Shown here: piece after piece, positions 10,276-22,339 of the stretch
How positions within the stretch are numbered: the stretch's first letter is position 1
How the letters are laid out: each line of letters begins with the position of its first letter
Source of the DNA: an uncultured Mycoplasmatota bacterium
GTDB lineage: Bacteria > Bacillota_I > Bacilli_A > RF39 > UBA660
DNA: 64,000 nt
Reading direction: 5' to 3'
Assembly (NCBI GenBank): GCA_900553835.1
Contig: USFF01000001.1
Span: 1,568 to 65,567 of the forward strand
Position numbers and translations under genes: made by a program
The notes under the pieces: model-generated
Told to the model about the DNA's origin: nothing
Databases searched by the model: none
What the model saw: only the letters and a program-made list of their open reading frames with translations

Positions 10276-10612
10276 ATATCTTAGGTAAACGCTGCATATA
10301 ATTATGTAGAGGAAAGTCCATACTCGCATAATCTGAGATTGATTATAGTGTTCGTGCTAGAGGAAAAAATAACTCTAGGTAGAGAAATCTAACGGCGATG
10401 AAAATGGAAAGTTCTTTCATGAGTAGTTGTAAAGTGCCATAGAGACGATGCATTTTAGGAATAAAATGAGTGGAACGCGGTAAACCCCACGAGCGAGAAA
10501 CCCAAATTTGGTAGGGGAGTCTACACAAATGAAATGAAAAGAGTGTAGGAGTTAATAACTAGATAAATGTTTACCACCCGTAAGGGCACAGAAAATGGCT
10601 TATTAGATATTT
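10274..10612 (+). ncRNA. rnpB: RNase P RNA, bacterial type B
   Basis: Conserved GAGGAAAGTCCAT, GTGCCA.AG.GACG, GGAACGCGGTAAACCCC.CGAGCGAGAAACCCAAATTTGGTAGGGG and ACAGAAAATGGCTTA blocks. P1 pairing is AAATATCT/AGATATTT. The ends are approximate. Confidence 0.9.
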
Positions 10613-13237: not shown

Positions 13238-14989
13238 ATGACAGATTTTATTAAAAATCAAGAAGAAAAATTGAAAGAAATTATTATAAAATGTGGTTAT
13301 ACAATAGATAACGTAAGCATTGTCCCATCAGTAAAACCTGAATTAGGTCAATTTCAATTTAATGGAGTTATGGAACTAGCACAAAGAAATAAGATTAACC
13401 CAAGAATAATTGCTGATGCTATAGTCCAAAAAATGAACGGTGACGAAGATTATAAAAATGTAAACGTAGCAGGACCTGGGTTTATAAATATTTCATTTTC
13501 AGATAAAGCATTATCTAATTATTTAGAATATTTAAGAACGCATATTACTGAGAAAACAAAAAAAGATGAAAATAAAAAAATCATCATAGATTATGGTGGA
13601 CCAAATGTTGCCAAAACTTTACATGTAGGTCACTTACGTAGTGCTAACATAGGAGAAGCACTTAAAAGGCTTTCAAAAGAATTGAACTATGAAGTAATAA
13701 GCGACATTCATTTAGGAGACTGGGGTAGACCAATGGGATTAATAATGCTTGAGTTAAAAGAAAAACACCCAGACTGGGTTTACTTTGATGAAAATTATGA
13801 GGGAGAATACCCAAGTGAATGTCCAATTTCAAATAGTGACCTAGAAAAGATGTATCCAGTAGCAAGTAACAAGGCTAAAGAAGATGAAGAATATCTTGAG
13901 GAAGCAAGAAACATTACAACAAAGTTGCAACGGAAACAAAAAGGTTACTATGAATTATGGAAGCAAATAGTTAAAATTTCTACTTCAGAAATCAAACACC
14001 TTTATGATAAACTTAACGTGTCATTTGATTTATGGAATGGCGAAAGTGATGCTGATGAATATGTTTCAGAAGTCATAAATTATTTAAAAGACAAAGGATT
14101 AGCATACGAAAGTGATGGAGCGCTTGTTATGGATGTTAGTTTACCAGATGATACTGCGGTAGTACCACCATTATTACTAGTTAAATCAAATGGTGCTATT
14201 TCTTACGAAATGACAGATTTAGCAACTTTATGGGAAAGGGTAAAAAATTATAGTCCTGATGAAATTTGGTATGTAGTAGACAAAAGACAAGATTTACATT
14301 TCGAACAAGTTTTTAGAGCAGCTTATAAATCAGGAATTGTGCCAAAAAATATAAAACTAGAATTTATTGGTTTTGGGACTATGAATGGAAAAGATGGAAA
14401 ACCATTTAAAACAAGAGATGGTGGGGTAATGTCTTTATCAAATCTAATTGATGCTGTAAAAAAAGCAACTTTAAATAAACTAAATCCTAATATAACTGGG
14501 AAAGATAGAGATGAAATTTCAGATGTATTAGCTGTTGGTGCACTTAAATATGCAGACTTACTTCCAAATAGATCGACTGATTATATTTTTGATGAAGAAA
14601 AATTCTGTGATTTTAATGGTAAAACTGGAATATATATATTATATTCTATAGTTAGAATAAGATCATTGTTAGCTAAAGCTAAAGAGCAAAATATTGCTAT
14701 TGGACCAATAAAACAGTTAACTTGTGACTCTGACAGAAATATTGCTATAAAAATACCTGAAATCTTTTCTATATTAGATAAATCCTTTAGAATAAAATCT
14801 CTTAATGATATAGCAGAATATTTGTATCAGTTAATAAATGTTTTTAATAATTTTTATACGTCTAACAGAATTTTAACAGAAAATGATGAATTAACAAGAG
14901 AGTCTTGGTTAGGGCTTGCTGAACTTGTATATAATATTAGTTTTAAATTAATAAATATTTTAGGAATAAAAGAGCCAAGAAAGATGTAA
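13238..14989 (+). CDS. argS: arginine--tRNA ligase
   Basis: 583 aa with the HVGHLRS class-I motif and a typical ArgS N- and C-terminal layout. Confidence 0.95.
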   Translation: MTDFIKNQEEKLKEIIIKCGYTIDNVSIVPSVKPELGQFQFNGVMELAQRNKINPRIIADAIVQKMNGDEDYKNVNVAGPGFINISFSDKALSNYLEYLRTHITEKTKKDENKKIIIDYGGPNVAKTLHVGHLRSANIGEALKRLSKELNYEVISDIHLGDWGRPMGLIMLELKEKHPDWVYFDENYEGEYPSECPISNSDLEKMYPVASNKAKEDEEYLEEARNITTKLQRKQKGYYELWKQIVKISTSEIKHLYDKLNVSFDLWNGESDADEYVSEVINYLKDKGLAYESDGALVMDVSLPDDTAVVPPLLLVKSNGAISYEMTDLATLWERVKNYSPDEIWYVVDKRQDLHFEQVFRAAYKSGIVPKNIKLEFIGFGTMNGKDGKPFKTRDGGVMSLSNLIDAVKKATLNKLNPNITGKDRDEISDVLAVGALKYADLLPNRSTDYIFDEEKFCDFNGKTGIYILYSIVRIRSLLAKAKEQNIAIGPIKQLTCDSDRNIAIKIPEIFSILDKSFRIKSLNDIAEYLYQLINVFNNFYTSNRILTENDELTRESWLGLAELVYNISFKLINILGIKEPRKM

Positions 14990-15466
14990 ATGAAGTTGTC
15001 TATGCGAGTGAAAAGTGAAGAATTAAGGAGATTTAAAACTAACGTTATTTATGACTATGGATACAGAGTGGTGTATTATTATGAAAAATATCATGAGGTG
15101 CCACAAACTTTATATGCAGAAAATATAGAAGATTTTATTTGTTTTTTCAAAGAGAAAAATAAAAAAATTAAATATAATGGTACTCAGGATTTATTAAAAA
15201 GATTTTTAGAAAAGGTGCCTGATGCATTAGGTGTTGCAATTTATGATATTGATCAAAATTGTATTGTAAAGTTAATTAAAGGTGGAGTAAAAAAAATTAA
15301 CGATACTGTAGTTTATAAAGAAGAATTAATTTATGATTATAACTATGTTACAGTTAAGGATGGATTTAGAATCGTTTATTTATATAATGATGGAACTTAT
15401 AAGCTTGGAGTAGGTGCTAAAAACATCGAGGATTTTATGAAAGAATTACTCCTTATGAACCTATAG
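14990..15466 (+). CDS. hypothetical protein with an internal duplication; the reading frame apparently continues to 15630 after a frameshift
   Basis: The start directly abuts the argS stop. Two modules share ..YDY.Y.VVY.Y...Y.....A.NIEDF. The matching tail of module 2 (..DLLNRYLEECQGVDGVALYNVDG) is in another frame at 15421-15630. Confidence 0.5.
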   Translation: MKLSMRVKSEELRRFKTNVIYDYGYRVVYYYEKYHEVPQTLYAENIEDFICFFKEKNKKIKYNGTQDLLKRFLEKVPDALGVAIYDIDQNCIVKLIKGGVKKINDTVVYKEELIYDYNYVTVKDGFRIVYLYNDGTYKLGVGAKNIEDFMKELLLMNL

Positions 15467-15687
15467 GTGAATTATGTGAAATTCCGCCATTTATATCAGT
15501 AGAAGATTTATTAAATAGATATTTAGAAGAATGCCAAGGAGTAGATGGGGTTGCATTATATAATGTAGATGGTACTTTAATTGATCAAAGGAATAGAATA
15601 AATTCTAATATAAAACAAAATTTAATTTGAGTGTATAAGTTGCACAGTGTATTTACTATAAAGTAGTTAAAAAACCTATATTTTAGA

Positions 15688-15715
15688 TTGACTTTTATAT
15701 TAAAAATTGTATAAT
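15688..15715 (+). promoter_or_regulatory. sigma-A type promoter of the small-ORF/ThiF-like/ABC-F operon
   Basis: TTGACT, 16 nt, TATAAT, with TG just upstream of the -10. Confidence 0.45.
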
Positions 15716-15757
15716 ATTATTAAAGAAGGGATAACAACTTCATTTGGTAGGAGGTAT

Positions 15758-15826
15758 ATGATGAAATTTAATGTAAAAAAAGTAACAGAAGCTAAATTTT
15801 CTTGTCACGTTGATCAAAACTGTTAA
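15758..15826 (+). CDS. 22-aa candidate precursor peptide MMKFNVKKVTEAKFSCHVDQNC
   Basis: GGAGG lies 5-8 nt upstream of tandem ATGs. It sits between a promoter and the ThiF-like gene and is followed by a hairpin. Not in the ORF track. Confidence 0.45.
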   Translation: MMKFNVKKVTEAKFSCHVDQNC

Positions 15827-15830
15827 TTAA

Positions 15831-15849
15831 AGCTCATTATTGAGCTTTT
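15831..15849 (+). terminator. hairpin (partial terminator/attenuator) between the small ORF and the ThiF-like gene
   Basis: AAGCTCA-TTAT-TGAGCTT stem-loop followed by TTTATCATT. Confidence 0.4.
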
Positions 15850-15870
15850 ATCATTATAACGGAGGTAAAA

Positions 15871-16893
15871 ATGTTAATTTTAAATACAACAAAACCATTT
15901 TATGTAGACAAGGTTAATAAAATAGTTAGAATGGGTAATTTTAAAGAAACGGGTAAAGAAATTGATTATGAGGATGAAATATTTTTATCTCTGATTAATA
16001 ATCTAAAAGAACCAATAGAGGAAAATGAACTTATAGAAAAAATTTTTAAAGAAACAAACATAGATAAAAATGAAGTCAAGAATATAATTGCGTATTTAAT
16101 AGAAGAAAATTTTATTATTAAAAATGAAGAATATGAAAAAATATGTAAAAGTGAGTATAGTAGGCAAGATTTATTTTTTTCACTATTTACAGATAATTTT
16201 AAGCAGAACAAAAAAATATTTGCTGACAAAACTGTTTTAGTATTAGGCTTGGGTGGAGTAGGTGCTAATGTTGCATATATGCTTTCACGTGCAGGTTTTG
16301 AAAATTTTATTTTGGTCGATAATGATATTGTTGAGTATAGTAATTTAATAAGACAATATCCATATCAGAAGAGGGACTTAGGAAGAAATAAAACTGAAGC
16401 TCTAGCATCTAAATTAGATGGAAATATAGTAACCAAAAAAATTATGATAGATAAAAAAGAACAAATTTTAAAAGATATTCAAAAATGTGATATTGTTATA
16501 TGTACTTTAGATAAACCTTTTAGAGTTATTAGAAGATTGATTAATGATATATGTGTCAGTGAAAATAAACCTGTTATTTTTGCCGGTTTCGCTGAACATG
16601 TTGCAATGATAGGACCATTTGTGATACCGCATGAAACAGCTTGTTTAAAATGTATAGACAAAGAAACAACAGATATACCTCTAGAAAATGTCAAAAACAT
16701 ACCATCTTATGGTCCGTTGTGTGCGTTGATTTCTTCAATTGTTGTTAATGAAATTATAAAATATTTTAATAATTATACGGAATATAATTTGAGAGGAAAA
16801 ACAATGATGTTTAATTTTGCAACATATGATACTCAAATAATTAATTGGAATAAAAAAGATACATGTGAGGTGTGTGCTAAATATGATAGTTAA
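15871..16893 (+). CDS. ThiF/E1-family adenylyltransferase with an N-terminal winged-helix-like extension (MccB/PaaA-like)
   Basis: GLGGVGANVA nucleotide loop, DNDIVEYSNLIRQ, and two CxxC pairs (CLKC, CEVC). About 95 aa precede the YSRQ motif. 340 aa. Confidence 0.8.
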   Translation: MLILNTTKPFYVDKVNKIVRMGNFKETGKEIDYEDEIFLSLINNLKEPIEENELIEKIFKETNIDKNEVKNIIAYLIEENFIIKNEEYEKICKSEYSRQDLFFSLFTDNFKQNKKIFADKTVLVLGLGGVGANVAYMLSRAGFENFILVDNDIVEYSNLIRQYPYQKRDLGRNKTEALASKLDGNIVTKKIMIDKKEQILKDIQKCDIVICTLDKPFRVIRRLINDICVSENKPVIFAGFAEHVAMIGPFVIPHETACLKCIDKETTDIPLENVKNIPSYGPLCALISSIVVNEIIKYFNNYTEYNLRGKTMMFNFATYDTQIINWNKKDTCEVCAKYDS

Positions 16894-18484
16894 TAATATA
16901 AAAGTAGAATTTAATGGTAATTTAATAATAGATGATGTATCATTTAAAATAAATAAAGGGGAAAAAGTAGGACTAGTAGGTAAAAATGGAAGTGGTAAAA
17001 GTACTCTTTTAAAAACTATTTCTGCTGAAAGCAATAAATCTTTTGTTAAGACTAATGGTGAAACAATTGGTTATTTAAAACAAGAAATCGAAGAAGAATA
17101 TTATGATTACAGTGTACTTGAATATATTAGAGAAGTTACTAAAGTAGAGAGTTTAGAAAATAAATTAAATGAACTTTCTTTGAATTTGACTGAAGATAGA
17201 ATGGAAGAATATACTCTTGTGTATAATGAATTTTTAAGCATAGATGGTTACAATTTTGAAAGTAATCTTGAAATTATAAAAAATGGTCTAAATTTGAGGG
17301 AACCACTTGATACCAAAATTAAAAAATTATCTGGCGGAGAAAAAATAAAAGTTTTATTAATAGAATTATTAATGTTAAACAAAGATATATTACTCTTAGA
17401 TGAACCTACAAATAATCTTGATACCGAAGCAATAACTTGGTTAGAAAAATATTTAAAACAAAGTGCAAAAAAAATGATTATTGTATCACATGATGAAATT
17501 TTTCTTAATAATATAGTAAACAAAATATTTGAATTATCAGATGGGAAAATTAAAGAGTATAACATGACTTATAATAAGTATTTAATAGCTAAAGAAAATG
17601 AATATAATAGAGAAAAAGAAGAGTATTATAAAACTAAAGAAGAAAAAGAAAGACTTAAAAGTGAATTAGAAAAAGCAAAAAGATGGGCTAATTCTGGAAA
17701 CAGTAAAAAAGCGCATAATGATAATGATAAAATAGCTAATAATTATGCTAAGGAAAGAACAAGTACATCAAATATAAAAAGAATAACAAGAAATTTAGAT
17801 AAGTTAAATATTCCTAATTTTGAAGAAAAAAAGCCTATAGACGTATTTTTTAGTTTAGATGATGACAAAGGAAATAAAGACATAGTTTTGGATAATCTTG
17901 TATGTGGCTATGATACATTTAAAACTGTTCTTCTTAATTTAACAATACCATATGGGATTAAAGTTCAAATAAAAGGTTTTAATGGAAGTGGAAAAACTAC
18001 TTTAATAAAAACTATTTTAGGACAAATAGATCCTATTAAAGGAACTATTAGTGTAGGTTCTAAAGTTAAGATGGGATATATTTCACAAAATACATTATTA
18101 GAAGGTAATAAGTCTGTTATAGAGTATCTTACTGAAAATATGAATGAAGTTAATTATTCCTTTGTGTTTACTTTGCTTGAAAAATTAAACATTAGTTATG
18201 AAGACAAAGATAAAATTTATTCTAAATTGTCACCAGGAGAAAGAACAAGAGTTGCTATTGCTAAACTTGCACTTTTAAAAACCAATGTATTAATATTAGA
18301 TGAAGTAACTAATCATCTTGATAAAGAAGCGCTTGACTTAATATATGAACTTATAAGTAGTTATGAAGGAACTATAATTAGTATTTCACACAATAGAAAA
18401 TATAATGAACTATTAGATGCAGACATTTTATTAGATATGAGTACTGGTTTAATAGAAAATTTAAAATTAACAAAAAAGTTATAA
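16883..18484 (+). CDS. ABC-F family ATPase (two ABC cassettes, charged linker, no TM segments)
   Basis: GKNGSGKST/LSGGEK/LLLDEPTNNLD and GFNGSGKTT/LSPGER/LILDEVTNHLD motifs. A Lys/Glu-rich inter-domain linker. The ATG overlaps the ThiF-like stop by 11 nt. Confidence 0.85.
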   Translation: MIVNNIKVEFNGNLIIDDVSFKINKGEKVGLVGKNGSGKSTLLKTISAESNKSFVKTNGETIGYLKQEIEEEYYDYSVLEYIREVTKVESLENKLNELSLNLTEDRMEEYTLVYNEFLSIDGYNFESNLEIIKNGLNLREPLDTKIKKLSGGEKIKVLLIELLMLNKDILLLDEPTNNLDTEAITWLEKYLKQSAKKMIIVSHDEIFLNNIVNKIFELSDGKIKEYNMTYNKYLIAKENEYNREKEEYYKTKEEKERLKSELEKAKRWANSGNSKKAHNDNDKIANNYAKERTSTSNIKRITRNLDKLNIPNFEEKKPIDVFFSLDDDKGNKDIVLDNLVCGYDTFKTVLLNLTIPYGIKVQIKGFNGSGKTTLIKTILGQIDPIKGTISVGSKVKMGYISQNTLLEGNKSVIEYLTENMNEVNYSFVFTLLEKLNISYEDKDKIYSKLSPGERTRVAIAKLALLKTNVLILDEVTNHLDKEALDLIYELISSYEGTIISISHNRKYNELLDADILLDMSTGLIENLKLTKKL

Positions 18485-18546
18485 ATTTGCATTAATGAAA
18501 AAAGTGTGCTATAATAAGTACACTTTTTTATTTAAGGGGGAAAAGT

Positions 18547-19716
18547 ATGGAATCATTTGATGGTAAATTAAAAAACGACTATATTAATGTTTTAAAAGTT
18601 AATGGTTTTTCAGATAAGGATATTAATAAAATAGAAAGACTTTTGTATAAATATAAAGATGTATTAACTGATTTTAGAGACTTAGTTGGTGACAGTCTTT
18701 TACCGGATAAATTTTATTTTTTTAATAATATGAAACATTTTGCGTATTTGTTTAGCAGTGATATTGATAAAACTGTAACAAAAGAATACTTGAATTTTAA
18801 TAAATTTATTTATTATTTAGTCAAACTTATAGGGCCTAGTTTTTTATTATCTAAACAAGTAATTGAAAATAGAAATATTTTAAAAGGTATAAATGTTAAA
18901 GATAATGGTATTAATCTTCCAAAAGAACCGGTAATGTGGACACCTAATCATCACTTCAAAGACGATGTTTTATGTTCAATGTTAAAAACTCAAAGACCCA
19001 GTTGTATGGCTTTTGCTAGTATTCCTCATTTTTTTAACTCATTTGATGGAATACTTGCTTATTCACTTGGAGTTATACTGATAAATAGAAAAAGTGAGGA
19101 AAGTAGAAGTACATGCTTACCAAAAATGAAAAAAGTAGTTGAACTTGGTTCAGATCTAATAGTTTGGCCTGAGGGTGTTTGGCATAAAAATCCAAACGAT
19201 TTAATTTTACATTTGTGGCCAGGTATATATAGGTGTTCAATTGAAACAGGAATAAAGGCGGTACCGATGATACATTATGTGAGAGATACTACTCAAAGAG
19301 AAAAGAAAAATAAAAATTTAATTCATACTGTAATTGATGAACCGGTTGACTTTAATACCATGCATGGGATGGGAGAACGAGCTTGCTTAGAATATTATAG
19401 AGATATAATGTGTACATGGTATTACTTAATGATGGAAAAATATGGACAAAGTACTAGAGAGGAAGAACTTAAGGGATATGATAATTCTGTTGAGGCATGG
19501 GAAGAACATTTAAATAATCTTCTTAATAATGCAGCAAGGTATGATAAAAGCATTGAGACAACAGCAAGTTATCGTATGAATGATTATGTCACTCCACTAG
19601 ATGTTTATGAAAATATTGCTTCACTTGATGTAACCAAAAGTAATGCTTTAGAAGTAGCAAATGCCAGAAAATTAATAAAAGAATATAAAATTAATGATTT
19701 TCAAAGTAGATTTTAA
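18547..19716 (+). CDS. PlsC/LPLAT-family acyltransferase-like protein
   Basis: NHHFKDD (HX4D) and WPEG motifs. Its own TTGCAT-17-TATAAT promoter lies at 18487-18515. Confidence 0.55.
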   Translation: MESFDGKLKNDYINVLKVNGFSDKDINKIERLLYKYKDVLTDFRDLVGDSLLPDKFYFFNNMKHFAYLFSSDIDKTVTKEYLNFNKFIYYLVKLIGPSFLLSKQVIENRNILKGINVKDNGINLPKEPVMWTPNHHFKDDVLCSMLKTQRPSCMAFASIPHFFNSFDGILAYSLGVILINRKSEESRSTCLPKMKKVVELGSDLIVWPEGVWHKNPNDLILHLWPGIYRCSIETGIKAVPMIHYVRDTTQREKKNKNLIHTVIDEPVDFNTMHGMGERACLEYYRDIMCTWYYLMMEKYGQSTREEELKGYDNSVEAWEEHLNNLLNNAARYDKSIETTASYRMNDYVTPLDVYENIASLDVTKSNALEVANARKLIKEYKINDFQSRF

Positions 19717-19782
19717 AAGAGATAATTTTCTCTTTTTTTATTATTTGTGGTATGTTATAATTATAATTGGAAGTGATGGATA

Positions 19783-21606
19783 ATGGCAGGAATTTTATTA
19801 CCGATATGTGCTACATTTTTTTCGTTATTATTAACAATAATATATTTTTCTAAAAAGAGAATTGATTTAGTTGAGAATAAAATTTATTCATTTATGATAC
19901 CAATAGTTTTAATAGATAGTGTTTTAGTTTCTTTAGTACAGGGAATAGGTTTAAACGGAATAAATTCTATAAGCAATATATTTATTTCTTTAATAAATAA
20001 AATTGATTTTATGCTTTTAGTAGTTTATTCTAATTGTATATTATTTTATATTATACTTATAACTTATCCAAAGGTGAAAAACAAATTTAAGTTTTTATTA
20101 TCAGCCTTTTCTGTTTTAGATATTTTAGTATTTATTTTCATAGCACTTGGAAAAGTAATTATTATTAGTAAAGGACATAACAACAGTGTAGAAGGTTCTT
20201 CATTGATGACTACTCTTATAGTTTGTGGAATATATATATTTAGTTCAATAGTTATTTCTATCATTAATATTAAAAAAATTGATAAAAGATATATACCTGT
20301 TTTTGCAAGTATCGGGATAGCTCTTTTCTTAATTCCAATGTTTAAAATTAATCCATACTTAATAGTTGTGTCTATCACTCTGACTTTTATAAATTACATT
20401 ATGTTCTTCACAATAGAAAATCCAGATGTTAAAATGGTAAAAGAACTAGAAATAGCTAAAGATGCAGCAGTAAAAGCAAATAAAGCTAAAAGTGAATTTT
20501 TAAGTAGTATGTCACATGAACTTAGAACACCACTTAATGCAATAGTATGTTTTAGTGAATTATTAGAAACTAAAGAAGGACTAGATAAAGAAAGTAAAGA
20601 TTTTGCTAAAGATATAGTAAATGCTAGTCATAATTTATTAGAGTTAGTAAATGGGGTACTTGATATAAGTAAAATAGAAGCAGGTAAAATGGAAGTAATA
20701 AATAAAGAGTATAATGCTAAAGAGTTATTTAATTCACTAAGTACAATGGTTATTCCTAGAATAGGAGATAAAAAGATAGAATTTAAAACACGTTTAGCAG
20801 AAGATTTACCTTGTGTACTTAATGGAGATACTGGTAAAATAAAACAAATAATACTTAATTTACTTACAAATGCAGTTAAATATACTGACTATGGATGTAT
20901 AGATTATGATATAGAATGTTTAAATGATTTTAAAAATAATAGAACAAAGTTAATAGTAAGTGTTAGGGATACAGGAAGGGGAATAAAAGAAGAAGATATA
21001 AATAGATTATTTCAGAAATTTGAAAGAATTGATGAAGATAGGAATACTACAATAGAAGGAACTGGACTAGGACTTGCAATAACACAAAGTTTAGCTGATC
21101 TTATGGGTGGAAAAATTAAAGTAACTTCTAGATATGGATATGGTTCTACATTTACATTTGTATTTGAACAAGATGTAGTATCATTTAATGAAGTAGAAGA
21201 AAAGAAAGAGGAAGAAATTATAGAAGAGAAAGTAGACTTTAGTAATAAAAGTATACTAGTAGTAGATGATTCTAAACTTAACTTAAAGGTAGCAGAGAAT
21301 GTATTAAAAGAATATAATGTAAACATCTTTACATGTATAAGTGCAAAAGAATGTTTAGATTACTTAAGTATAGGTAAATATGATATAATATTAATGGATA
21401 TAATGATGCCTGTTATGAATGGAGTAGAGGCCTTAAAAGAAATAAAAAAACTAGGAGTAGAAACTCCTGTAATAGCTTTAACTGCAGATGCAATAGATGG
21501 ACAAGAGGACAAATATTTAAAAGAAGGTTTTGATGGTTATTTATCTAAACCAATTGATAAAAATGAATTAAAAAAGATATTAAATAAGTATTTGAAAGGA
21601 GAATGA
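19783..21606 (+). CDS. hybrid sensor histidine kinase (multi-TM sensor, HisKA, HATPase, receiver)
   Basis: H-box SHELRTPLNAI, N/G boxes (DTGRGI, GTGLGLAI), and a C-terminal REC domain (VVDDS..LMDIMMP..K). Confidence 0.9.
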   Translation: MAGILLPICATFFSLLLTIIYFSKKRIDLVENKIYSFMIPIVLIDSVLVSLVQGIGLNGINSISNIFISLINKIDFMLLVVYSNCILFYIILITYPKVKNKFKFLLSAFSVLDILVFIFIALGKVIIISKGHNNSVEGSSLMTTLIVCGIYIFSSIVISIINIKKIDKRYIPVFASIGIALFLIPMFKINPYLIVVSITLTFINYIMFFTIENPDVKMVKELEIAKDAAVKANKAKSEFLSSMSHELRTPLNAIVCFSELLETKEGLDKESKDFAKDIVNASHNLLELVNGVLDISKIEAGKMEVINKEYNAKELFNSLSTMVIPRIGDKKIEFKTRLAEDLPCVLNGDTGKIKQIILNLLTNAVKYTDYGCIDYDIECLNDFKNNRTKLIVSVRDTGRGIKEEDINRLFQKFERIDEDRNTTIEGTGLGLAITQSLADLMGGKIKVTSRYGYGSTFTFVFEQDVVSFNEVEEKKEEEIIEEKVDFSNKSILVVDDSKLNLKVAENVLKEYNVNIFTCISAKECLDYLSIGKYDIILMDIMMPVMNGVEALKEIKKLGVETPVIALTADAIDGQEDKYLKEGFDGYLSKPIDKNELKKILNKYLKGE

Positions 21607-21607
21607 A

Positions 21608-22339
21608 ATGAATAACGAATATTTAAAAAATGCTGGAATTAATGTAGATGAAGTAATGAACTTTTGGGGAGATATTGAAGCTTATAAAGATAACTTACTA
21701 GAATTTTTAACCTCTGTAGATACAAAAATAAAAGAACTAGAAAGTTATAAAAATAATACTGAAATAAGTAGTTATACCATGCTTGCCCATAGCTTAAAGA
21801 GTGAAACAAGATATTTAGGTTTAAATAAATTATCTGATATATTTTATACTCATGAACTTAAAGGCAAAGAAAATAATGTTGACTACATAAAAAGTAACTT
21901 TACTGAAATAGAAAATGGAGTTAATAAAGTTAAAAGTGATTTAAAAGACTTTTTAAATAGTACAACTATTAAGAAGAGTTTATTAGTAGTAGATGACTCT
22001 AATATAATAATTAATTATATAGAAAACTTAGTAAAAAGTGATTATAATGTAATAAGAGCTAATAATGGAATAGAGGCTGTAAATAAAATAAATGAAAATA
22101 TATATGCACTTTTACTTGATATAAATATGCCTAAAAGTACTGGTATAGATGTTTTAAAATATATGAATGATAATGATTTAATAGATAAAATACCAGTAGT
22201 AATTATAACTGGCAATGATACAAGTAATCAAATAAAAGAATTAATTGGTTATAATGTTTTAGATGTACTTAATAAACCATTTACACCTGATAATATAAAA
22301 AGAGTATTAACTTTAATAGAGAATTTTCATAATAATTAG
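21608..22339 (+). CDS. Hpt-domain plus receiver-domain phosphorelay protein
   Basis: AHSLKSETRYLG is an Hpt histidine motif, followed by a REC domain (LVVDDS..LLDINMP). There is no output domain. Confidence 0.8.
   Translation: MNNEYLKNAGINVDEVMNFWGDIEAYKDNLLEFLTSVDTKIKELESYKNNTEISSYTMLAHSLKSETRYLGLNKLSDIFYTHELKGKENNVDYIKSNFTEIENGVNKVKSDLKDFLNSTTIKKSLLVVDDSNIIINYIENLVKSDYNVIRANNGIEAVNKINENIYALLLDINMPKSTGIDVLKYMNDNDLIDKIPVVIITGNDTSNQIKELIGYNVLDVLNKPFTPDNIKRVLTLIENFHNN

Follow-up and report, generated by a model that had tools for sequence, protein, structure and literature searches.

Five chemistries are known for the ThiF-like enzymes that modify peptides made on the ribosome and altered after translation (RiPPs) (PMC12596934, PMC12250964, PMC12150305, PMC11256085). 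MccB makes phosphoramidates and PaaA a bicyclic imide (PMC12596934, PMC12250964, PMC12150305, PMC11256085); GrcB forms a thiolactone from Glu35 to the C-terminal Cys39 (PMC12596934, PMC12250964); EnfB forms a C-terminal macrocyclic imide, and IndF an amide between the C-terminal carboxylate and a Trp indole (PMC12150305, PMC11256085). The E. coli MccB enzyme also O-AMPylates C-termini other than Asn, and thiols trap the resulting intermediate as thioesters (PMC11118369). In the mcc operon, a terminator between mccA and mccB sets the ratio of precursor to enzyme (PMC4231749). Here we analyse a locus in a 64,000-nucleotide stretch of DNA from an uncultured Mycoplasmatota bacterium (the window hereafter), where a gene for a 21-residue peptide is followed by genes for an MccB-like enzyme and for an ABC-F ATPase. 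We propose, with a probability of about 0.6, that these three genes form the operon of a ThiF-like RiPP of a new family, in which the terminal core of the precursor would be adenylated and captured by a Cys, and the ABC-F would protect the ribosome.

The initial annotation of the window had placed the small open reading frame (ORF) at 15758-15849, and had noted two Cys six residues apart, a penultimate Asn and a terminal Cys. These features were confirmed from the sequence. As to the limits, 15758 is indeed the start of an in-frame ATG, but the gene ends at 15826, and the segment running to 15849 takes in a hairpin (Table 1). The ORF reads ATG ATG AAA ... AAC TGT TAA, with the TAA at 15824-15826, and its translation from the first ATG is MMKFNVKKVTEAKFSCHVDQNC followed by a stop, or M(M)KFNVKKVTEAKFSCHVDQNC when the alternative starts are both written. 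The GGAGG motif is located 3 nucleotides before the first ATG and 6 nucleotides before the second, and the homologues of the peptide are all 21 residues long and begin with MK or MR. Based on this spacing and on the homologues, the second ATG is favoured, and the actual product is likely the 21-mer, whose numbering is used below. Its N-terminal 13 residues or so look like a leader, and the core reads F-x-C-H-V-D-Q-[N/H]-C.

Conservation of this peptide was examined by two routes. A scan of one genome per species gave 32 loci. In 28 of them, an ORF of 20 to 27 codons ends 45 to 80 nucleotides 5′ of the enzyme gene, with the consensus M-K-F-x-V-K-K-[LVI]-x-x-x-K-F-[A/S/E]-C-H-V-D-Q-N-C-stop. The second route made no use of the enzyme: metagenome contigs were scanned with a degenerate DNA pattern covering the last nine codons of the peptide. 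It found 36 loci, and in every one of the 35 that had more than 100 bp downstream, a ThiF homologue begins 45 to 100 nucleotides past the stop codon of the peptide. The association of the small ORF with a ThiF-like enzyme, already put forward in the initial annotation, was therefore upheld by both scans, and about 66 loci in all have the peptide gene at the same place and with a conserved sequence. The core motif was not found wherever ThiF was absent or broken.

Residues F13, C15, H16, V17, D18 and C21 are unchanged in 27 distinct DNA versions of the gene. The third codon positions of these invariant residues alternate (TGT/TGC, CAC/CAT, GTT/GTA, GAT/GAC), and the DNA 3′ of the peptide stop cannot be aligned between distant loci, so that selection must bear on the encoded peptide. 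We conclude that the small ORF is a true gene under protein-level selection. Conservation is greatest in the Cys/His/Asp core and moderate in the N-terminal part. All of the approximately 66 versions end in Cys, and the residue before it is Asn or His. It had been suggested to check by alignment whether the Asn-Cys end and the internal Cys are invariant: both Cys are, but the Asn is not, being replaced by His in at least 11 loci (L002, L003, L007 and eight metagenome loci). The two residues may even be exchanged in otherwise identical peptides, L053 ending in QNC and L052 in QHC. Within one lineage sharing the identical leader MKINVKKVTVAKFS, the penultimate residue is Asn or His (L052/L056/L074/L076 versus L053/L060/L069), and this variation looks like a standing polymorphism at the sole variable position of the core. 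A different kind of variant is present in L023 (5887-5922), where an in-frame deletion of 30 nucleotides between two AAATTTG repeats leaves a leaderless MKFACHVDQNC; L023 also has its ABC-F frame broken into two parts, and there tblastn matches the enzyme from query residue 7 onwards.

By sequence profile and by predicted fold, the enzyme is a full-length relative of MccB, which is its closest solved structure in both respects, in agreement with the initial annotation. Pfam PF00899 (ThiF) matches residues 103-333 (1.4e-43) and leaves over an N-terminal extension of about 100 residues. A profile of 64 homologues searched against solved structures gave MccB first (E 4e-59, 203 bits), followed by MoeB (132 bits) and PaaA (101 bits), and the single enzyme sequence already aligns to MccB over residues 60 to 335. 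The AlphaFold2 model (mean predicted local distance difference test score, pLDDT, 93.4) was compared with known structures using Foldseek: MccB chains were the best matches, over about 350 columns and with template modelling (TM) scores of 0.76-0.79, the predicted N-terminal peptide-clamp domain being included in the alignment. PaaA came next (TM 0.75), then ThiF, MoeB and UBA5, for the adenylation domain only.

The ATP-binding and catalytic residues of the enzyme are intact. All 64 homologues have the glycines of the GxGxxG motif (G126, G128, G131), D150, N158 and D214. At least 90% of them also share R161, Q162, K174 and the four zinc-site Cys (C258, C261, C332, C335), which do not vary in an alignment of 19 core sequences. 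A further Cys, C284 (codon 16720-16722), is not part of the zinc site; it is invariant in the core family and present in at least 90% of the 64 homologues, lies just past the crossover loop, and aligns with an Asn of MccB. Homologues of the enzyme form 118 clusters in the protein collection, nearly all of them unnamed and from gut metagenomes. No NCBIfam model scored above its cutoff for the enzyme or for the peptide. Assignment to the C-proteins of thiazole/oxazole-modified microcins (docking proteins for azoline formation, E1-like and inactive) was rejected: the SagC-type hit (1.6e-16) is far below cutoff, the enzyme has kept its ATP site and a YcaO partner is missing. PADLOC returned generic E1 and ABC ATPase hits only, and no known defence system. 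No relative was found in viral contigs and all plasmid hits, MccB itself among them, were below 31% identity; carriage by phages or plasmids was rejected.

The ABC-F gene had not been mentioned in the initial annotation, and it proved to be the most informative neighbour. When the surroundings of the 32 loci were compared, using tblastn and all-against-all clustering of ORFs, the enzyme and the ABC-F were the only conserved genes. Where the sequence extends far enough, the ABC-F immediately follows ThiF in 29 of 29 genome loci and in 28 of 30 metagenome loci, which makes 57 of 59; L036 and L040 have it there as well. The two genes often overlap, and their pairwise identities co-vary (Spearman 0.69, 26 loci).

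The ABC-F protein has two ABC_tran domains and an ABC_tran_Xtn domain, and no membrane domain. Its top NCBIfam model is NF000355 (ribosomal protection-like ABC-F), at 376 bits for a cutoff of 380; relatives score between 364 and 391 bits on this model, some over the cutoff and some under, and one of them is labelled by NCBI as "ribosomal protection-like ABC-F family protein". Compared with E. coli YbiT and YheS, the linker between its domains is extended by about 20 residues, an approximate figure taken from phmmer alignments. An extended inter-domain linker is a trait of resistance-type ABC-Fs. None of the named resistance subfamilies was matched, the scores being 180-280 bits against cutoffs of 680-1450.

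Relatives of the ABC-F with at least 57% identity are numerous. Five clusters of them were looked up (Table 1), and in a neighbour-joining tree the copies without ThiF nest next to near-identical copies with ThiF in four places. The traces left at these loci are diverse. In L041 (3760-4000), the promoter, ribosome-binding site, hairpin and ABC-F are kept, the peptide is reduced to MMNFFVKK-stop, and the enzyme gene to three short fragments. This decay is shared by L042 and L043, and L041 comes from a close relative of the window organism, its ABC-F being 91% identical. L037 is 99.3% identical to L003 from the final 60 nucleotides or so of the enzyme gene onwards, and has kept that stub. Comparison of L034 with L036 reveals a clean absence of 1.94 kb in L034, which corresponds to a 212-residue ORF (of the Cys-rich family described below), the peptide gene and the enzyme gene. 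In L033 (3227-3986), a segment of 0.79 kb with two small ORFs for predicted membrane proteins stands where L001 has the peptide and enzyme genes; both membrane proteins are directly upstream of the ABC-F, and one matches DUF5412. Finally, the peptide gene is missing from three further species-representative loci (L024, L031, L032), whose enzyme gene is truncated or frameshifted. The ThiF-less ABC-F copies of L034 and L037 are separated from the upstream gene by 64-70 bp, with no leader ORF.

Peptide and enzyme thus come and go together, and have done so repeatedly, with at least four losses; the ABC-F is retained. Such a one-sided dependence is what a toxin and its immunity gene would be expected to show and, as the retained partner is a resistance-like ABC-F, it points to the ribosome as target. 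As for the small ORF, its protein-level conservation, its exclusive co-occurrence with the enzyme, their joint loss, and the peptide clamp and intact active site of the enzyme leave us in little doubt that it is the substrate of the MccB-like enzyme.

Signals around the peptide gene suggest how the operon may be expressed. The promoter-like site scores highest within 14900-20000, with 11 of 12 matches to a sigma-70-like consensus. A purine-rich, GGAGG-like motif is found 6-10 nucleotides 5′ of the start codon in most related loci, often in a partial form (AGGTGG, GGGAG, AAGGAA). The hairpin at 15829-15848, AAAGCTCA-TTAT-TGAGCTTT, has a free energy of −9.5 kcal/mol according to RNAfold; a strict terminator scan did not list it. 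A hairpin with a T-run occurs at the equivalent place in every related locus, 2-25 nucleotides past the stop codon, with differing stem sequences. From the single promoter, the precursor gene would be transcribed, the hairpin would halt most transcripts, and some would read on into the enzyme and ABC-F genes. The clamp domain of the enzyme would bind the basic and hydrophobic N-terminal part of the precursor (M-K-F-x-V-K-K-L...K-F), and with ATP the enzyme would adenylate a carboxylate within the invariant core C-H-V-D-Q-[N/H]-C. The likeliest site is the α-carboxylate of Cys21; the thiol of Cys15 would then capture it, to give a thiolactone ring of seven residues in which the thiol of Cys21 stays free. 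This scheme is favoured because of the closeness of the enzyme to MccB, and because of the precedents of IndF, EnfB and thiol trapping. The ABC-F, translationally coupled to the enzyme, would guard the producer's own ribosomes, the ribosome being the target of the product. The activated carboxylate, the attacking nucleophile, the release of the product and the ribosomal target are all points that we infer.

With respect to chemistry, the framing of the initial annotation was partly right but is outdated. It took the characterised homologues to be limited to a C-terminal Asn or an internal Glu-Glu-Asn, a view overtaken by GrcB, IndF and EnfB (PMC12596934, PMC12150305, PMC11256085). Formation of a thiolactone or thioester, which it held to be new for the enzyme family, would be a variant and not a first, given GrcB and the trapping of MccB intermediates as thioesters (PMC11118369). 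Chemistry on residues other than Asn has precedents in this enzyme class, and the novelty is that of a new family within the known class of ThiF-like RiPPs.

Table 1. Features of the locus and of related loci. Positions are those of the window unless a locus is named.
Feature	Location	Strand	Remarks
Promoter-like site, TTGACT, 16 nt, TATAAT	15688..15715	+	upstream of the peptide gene; consensus match only
Ribosome-binding site, GGAGG	15750..15754	+	read from the sequence
Precursor peptide gene	15761..15826	+	21 residues, probably MKFNVKKVTEAKFSCHVDQNC; 22 residues from the in-frame ATG at 15758
Stem-loop and T-rich tract	15829..15848	+	between peptide gene and enzyme gene; terminator- or attenuator-like
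MccB-like ThiF/E1-type adenylating enzyme, 340 residues	15871..16893	+	predicted N-terminal peptide-clamp domain of about 100 residues (like a RiPP recognition element, RRE) and adenylation domain; four-Cys site
ABC-F ATPase, ribosomal-protection-like type, 533 residues	16883..18484	+	first 11 nt shared with the 3′ end of the enzyme gene
158-residue ORF	14990-15466		upstream of the module; no family
PlsC-like acyltransferase	18547-19716		downstream of the module
Hybrid histidine kinase	19783-22339		multi-pass membrane N-terminus; downstream of the module
Two large ORFs, 375 and 720 residues	24218-27840	-	just downstream of the operon region
RNase P RNA, bacterial class B	10277-10607	+	250 bits; between a DivIVA-like ORF and a housekeeping cluster
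Cys-rich protein family	L011, 5047-5676	-	
Cys-rich protein family	L040, 354-983	-	
Cys-rich protein family	L036, 80-718	-	
ABC-F cluster P0125	L033		no ThiF
ABC-F cluster P0208	L037-L039		no ThiF
ABC-F cluster P0124	L041-L043		ThiF fragments only
ABC-F cluster P0168	L040		ThiF present
ABC-F cluster P0146	L036 and L034/L035		both ThiF-plus and ThiF-less

Several observations weigh against the proposed scheme. In the 32 loci, the module has no conserved neighbour that would serve as exporter, leader peptidase or further immunity gene. The ABC-F clade is found widely in loci that lack ThiF; among solved structures it comes closest to housekeeping factors (YbiT, YheS, ARB1, EttA), whose scores are near those of resistance factors; and the window protein itself falls 4 bits short of the NCBIfam cutoff. 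Taken together, the absence of a conserved exporter and the frequent occurrence of the ABC-F alone leave room for an explanation other than immunity. Two loci, L049 and L075, have no full ABC-F after ThiF; both are short contigs, with a coverage of 3.3 and 1.8. In L049 (1185-1922) the enzyme gene is followed by a different, single-domain ABC ATPase, and in L075 (1193-1255) by 21 ABC-F codons and then a break; these two may be assembly chimeras. Within the peptide, the invariant Asp18, three residues before the terminal Cys, would suit a side-chain thiolactone of the GrcB type as well, and His16, Asp18 and the two Cys together resemble a metal site.

Among the alternatives, the one that survives best is precisely this GrcB-type reaction, which we regard as unlikely: the side chain of Asp18 would be adenylated, and the thiol of Cys21 (forming a four-residue ring) or of Cys15 would attack it, to produce a small side-chain thiolactone with a free α-carboxylate. 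Asp18 and the C-terminal Cys are both invariant, and in GrcA, Glu35-x-x-x-Cys39, the two residues joined by GrcB likewise end in the last Cys (PMC12596934, PMC12250964). The Asp-Cys spacing is nevertheless unlike that of GrcA, the enzyme is nearer to MccB, which acts on an α-carboxylate, than to PaaA, which acts on a side chain (203 versus 101 bits), and the grc partners, namely radical S-adenosylmethionine (SAM) enzymes, a stand-alone RRE and a transporter, were not found around the module. GrcB itself was compared by its description.

It may also be that the product has no ribosomal role, being for example a thiolactone signal or a Cys/His/Asp metal-binding peptide, and that the pair was inserted into the operon of an ABC-F that already resided there, as a translation factor or an intrinsic resistance gene. 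Metal ligands of the classic kinds make up four of the six invariant residues of the core, a hybrid histidine kinase is near the module in several loci, and the housekeeping relatives of the ABC-F and the lack of a conserved exporter noted above would fit; moreover, the clade frequently occurs without ThiF, amid housekeeping genes of various kinds (in L034 it follows an rsmA-like gene). We nevertheless hold this to be rather unlikely. The pair lies directly upstream of one ABC-F clade in almost all loci despite differing flanks, with genes that often overlap and co-diverge, and an insertion hot spot fails to explain that the pair is not seen elsewhere. Where the pair has been lost, the kinase is still found with the ABC-F, and most loci have no such kinase within 6 kb.

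More improbable is a peptidyl-nucleotide built on the Cys terminus, where AMP or another nucleoside monophosphate would be kept at the C-terminus and mimic the 3′ end of peptidyl- or aminoacyl-tRNA at the peptidyl-transferase centre, the ABC-F clearing the compound. MccB is the nearest relative of the enzyme, and the ABC-F is ribosomal-protection-like with a long linker. Ard1 is reportedly a case of self-protection by an ABC-F in the producer of a nucleoside antibiotic. Against this stands the chemistry of MccB: its stable N-P bond requires the side-chain amide of a C-terminal Asn (PMC11256085, PMC11118369), and an acyl-adenylate by itself is unstable to hydrolysis (PMC11118369). The present peptide ends in Cys, and its penultimate residue may be His, so that a nucleotide conjugate is made less likely by the very Asn needed for MccB chemistry being neither terminal nor invariant. 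Homologues of MccC, MccD, MccE and MccF were not found, either by Pfam among the window neighbours or in the neighbourhoods of the loci.

Alternatively, the small ORF might be a regulatory leader or arrest peptide, through which ribosome pausing would govern the hairpin and ABC-F expression, a mode of control known for many ABC-F genes of antibiotic resistance, and not a substrate of the enzyme; every locus does combine a short ORF and a terminator-like hairpin upstream of an ABC-F resembling the antibiotic resistance (ARE) type. This is very improbable, because an enzyme gene of 1 kb with a peptide-clamp domain separates the hairpin from the ABC-F, because the peptide core is lost jointly with the enzyme while promoter, hairpin and ABC-F stay (L041), and because ThiF-less ABC-F copies have no leader ORF. 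Conservation focused in the Cys/His/Asp core, with a moderately conserved N-terminal part, also argues against it.

Last, it is scarcely credible that the terminal Cys is trimmed before MccB chemistry on the Asn, or that the product is a cysteinyl-adenylate-like Trojan horse directed at an aminoacyl-tRNA synthetase, both raised in some form by the initial annotation: the enzyme is MccB-like, Asn is penultimate in most versions and cysS and argS are just upstream in the window, but His replaces Asn in at least 11 loci, some with an otherwise identical peptide, no peptidase is conserved, cysS/argS are adjacent in none of the 32 representative loci nor present in the gene lists of 11 ABC-F-derived loci, and the conserved partner is a ribosome-associated ABC-F rather than a synthetase-related immunity gene. 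As the cysS/argS adjacency is not conserved, the idea of an aminoacyl-adenylate mimic loses its sole support.

The other genes around the module are variable. Upstream of it, the window carries cysS, argS and the 158-residue ORF, and downstream the PlsC-like acyltransferase, the hybrid histidine kinase, a response regulator and a DUF1003 protein. The acyltransferase and the 158-residue ORF were rejected as parts of the system, since they are not conserved past the closest relatives. The kinase and response regulator were likewise rejected as core components, being adjacent in some loci only and staying with the ABC-F after loss of the peptide and enzyme. The hybrid histidine kinase was also seen in L001, L002, L008, L018, L033, L037, L039 and L041-L043; it recurs near the ABC-F with or without peptide and enzyme, in some cases accompanied by an Hpt-type response regulator, and an AMP-binding enzyme is often present too. 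No regulator is conserved around the module in the 32 loci.

About one third of the loci have, next to the module, a member of a family of Cys-rich proteins of 209-219 residues, which is absent from the window. Besides the three loci in Table 1, it was found in L012, L013, L019-L022, L024, L026, L027, L029 and nine metagenome loci. In most cases the gene is divergent and precedes the peptide gene; L019/L021 have it downstream of the ABC-F. The family forms 20 clusters in the protein collection and has no Pfam match. An AlphaFold2 model (pLDDT 93.5) predicts a fold like that of class I SAM methyltransferases, with weak matches to rRNA and natural-product methyltransferases (TM about 0.5).

The window has a G+C content of 25%, which, like its class B RNase P RNA, suits the low-GC Bacilli given in the related records. 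An Rfam search over 9-24 kb gave RNase P RNA as the sole hit, and hence no known RNA family at the locus. Of the two large minus-strand ORFs listed in Table 1, the one of 720 residues has a P-loop-like N-terminus and long coiled-coil-like stretches.

To a small but expanding enzyme class, the proposed operon contributes a new core motif with sharp definition, F-x-C-H-V-D-Q-[N/H]-C, and a gene set so small that its reconstitution should be easy, and the ABC-F linkage turns an unusual precursor into a testable hypothesis, that of a ribosome-directed peptide from uncultured gut Bacilli. A bolder version may be put forward tentatively, as one that we think possible without expecting it: this would be the first RiPP with a target-protection ABC-F as its dedicated self-protection, the product, made by an MccB-like enzyme of uncultured gut Bacilli with small genomes, would be a thiolactone or otherwise C-terminally activated peptide, binding the large ribosomal subunit near the peptidyl-transferase centre or the exit tunnel, and the frequent genomes with the ABC-F only would be immune non-producers. 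If the ribosome is indeed the target, gut commensals would hold a new ribosome-binding peptide scaffold, an orphan ABC-F clade would have found its natural substrate, producer and immune-only genotypes would exist side by side in gut communities, and the thiol-capture reactivity that protein chemists engineered into MccB would have a natural use.

Comparison with described systems situates the locus as follows. As in microcin C (MccA heptapeptide and MccB), a very short precursor gene is directly upstream of the enzyme gene, with a hairpin in between (PMC4231749), and the enzyme has an intact E1/ThiF adenylation domain to which, according to the predicted model, an N-terminal clamp is fused. 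Unlike MccA, the precursor has 21 residues and ends in Cys after Asn or His, whereas microcin C requires a terminal Asn for the succinimide and the N-P bond. The MccC exporter, the MccD/E tailoring enzymes and MccE/F immunity have no counterpart here, the conserved partner being an ABC-F, and the logic of an aspartyl-tRNA synthetase target cannot be transferred.

With GrcB and GrcA of Streptococcus pneumoniae, the locus shares an RRE-ThiF fusion and a precursor ending in Cys with an acidic residue shortly before, which makes a thiolactone plausible (PMC12596934, PMC12250964). It differs by Asp18-x-x-Cys21 in place of Glu-x-x-x-Cys, by a second invariant Cys and by the surroundings of the module, where radical SAM partners, a stand-alone RRE, a transporter and quorum-sensing regulators are not conserved. 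The clusters of IndF (indolylamide) and EnfB (enterofaecin) are minimal Bacillota clusters like this one; there, one ATP activates the C-terminal α-carboxylate, which an internal nucleophile captures (PMC12150305, PMC11256085), and the same mechanism is proposed here. Their nucleophile, however, is a Trp indole or a backbone amide, their cores are hydrophobic (NWYFI, WWIVI), and their clusters carry transporters and a peptidase, none being reported with an ABC-F. The ThiF-RiPP clades predicted in lactic acid bacteria (WWIII, NWYFI, VEGR, NICxxxK, CxxxC, GxxQY) were also considered and rejected, none having a matching motif, cluster composition or ABC-F.

Our literature search, whose coverage was incomplete and which gives absence of evidence only, found no paper combining ThiF and ABCF, and no known RiPP cluster with self-protection by an ABC-F. 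Like the ABC-Fs of the ARE type (Vga, Lsa, Msr, VmlR, and OleB and Ard1 for the producer types), the ABC-F described here has two nucleotide-binding domains, no membrane domain and an extended linker, and, as in antibiotic producers, it shares an operon with biosynthetic genes. Unlike the named ARE subfamilies, it is far under their cutoffs, and unlike the resistance ABC-Fs controlled by leader attenuation, the short ORF and terminator do not immediately precede it, the enzyme gene being in between. With an RRE-ThiF fusion enzyme beside a short conserved precursor gene, the module falls within the broad definition of ThiF-like (TLAT) RiPPs. Its Cys/His/Asp core and its ABC-F linkage set it apart as a family that does not appear to have been described before.

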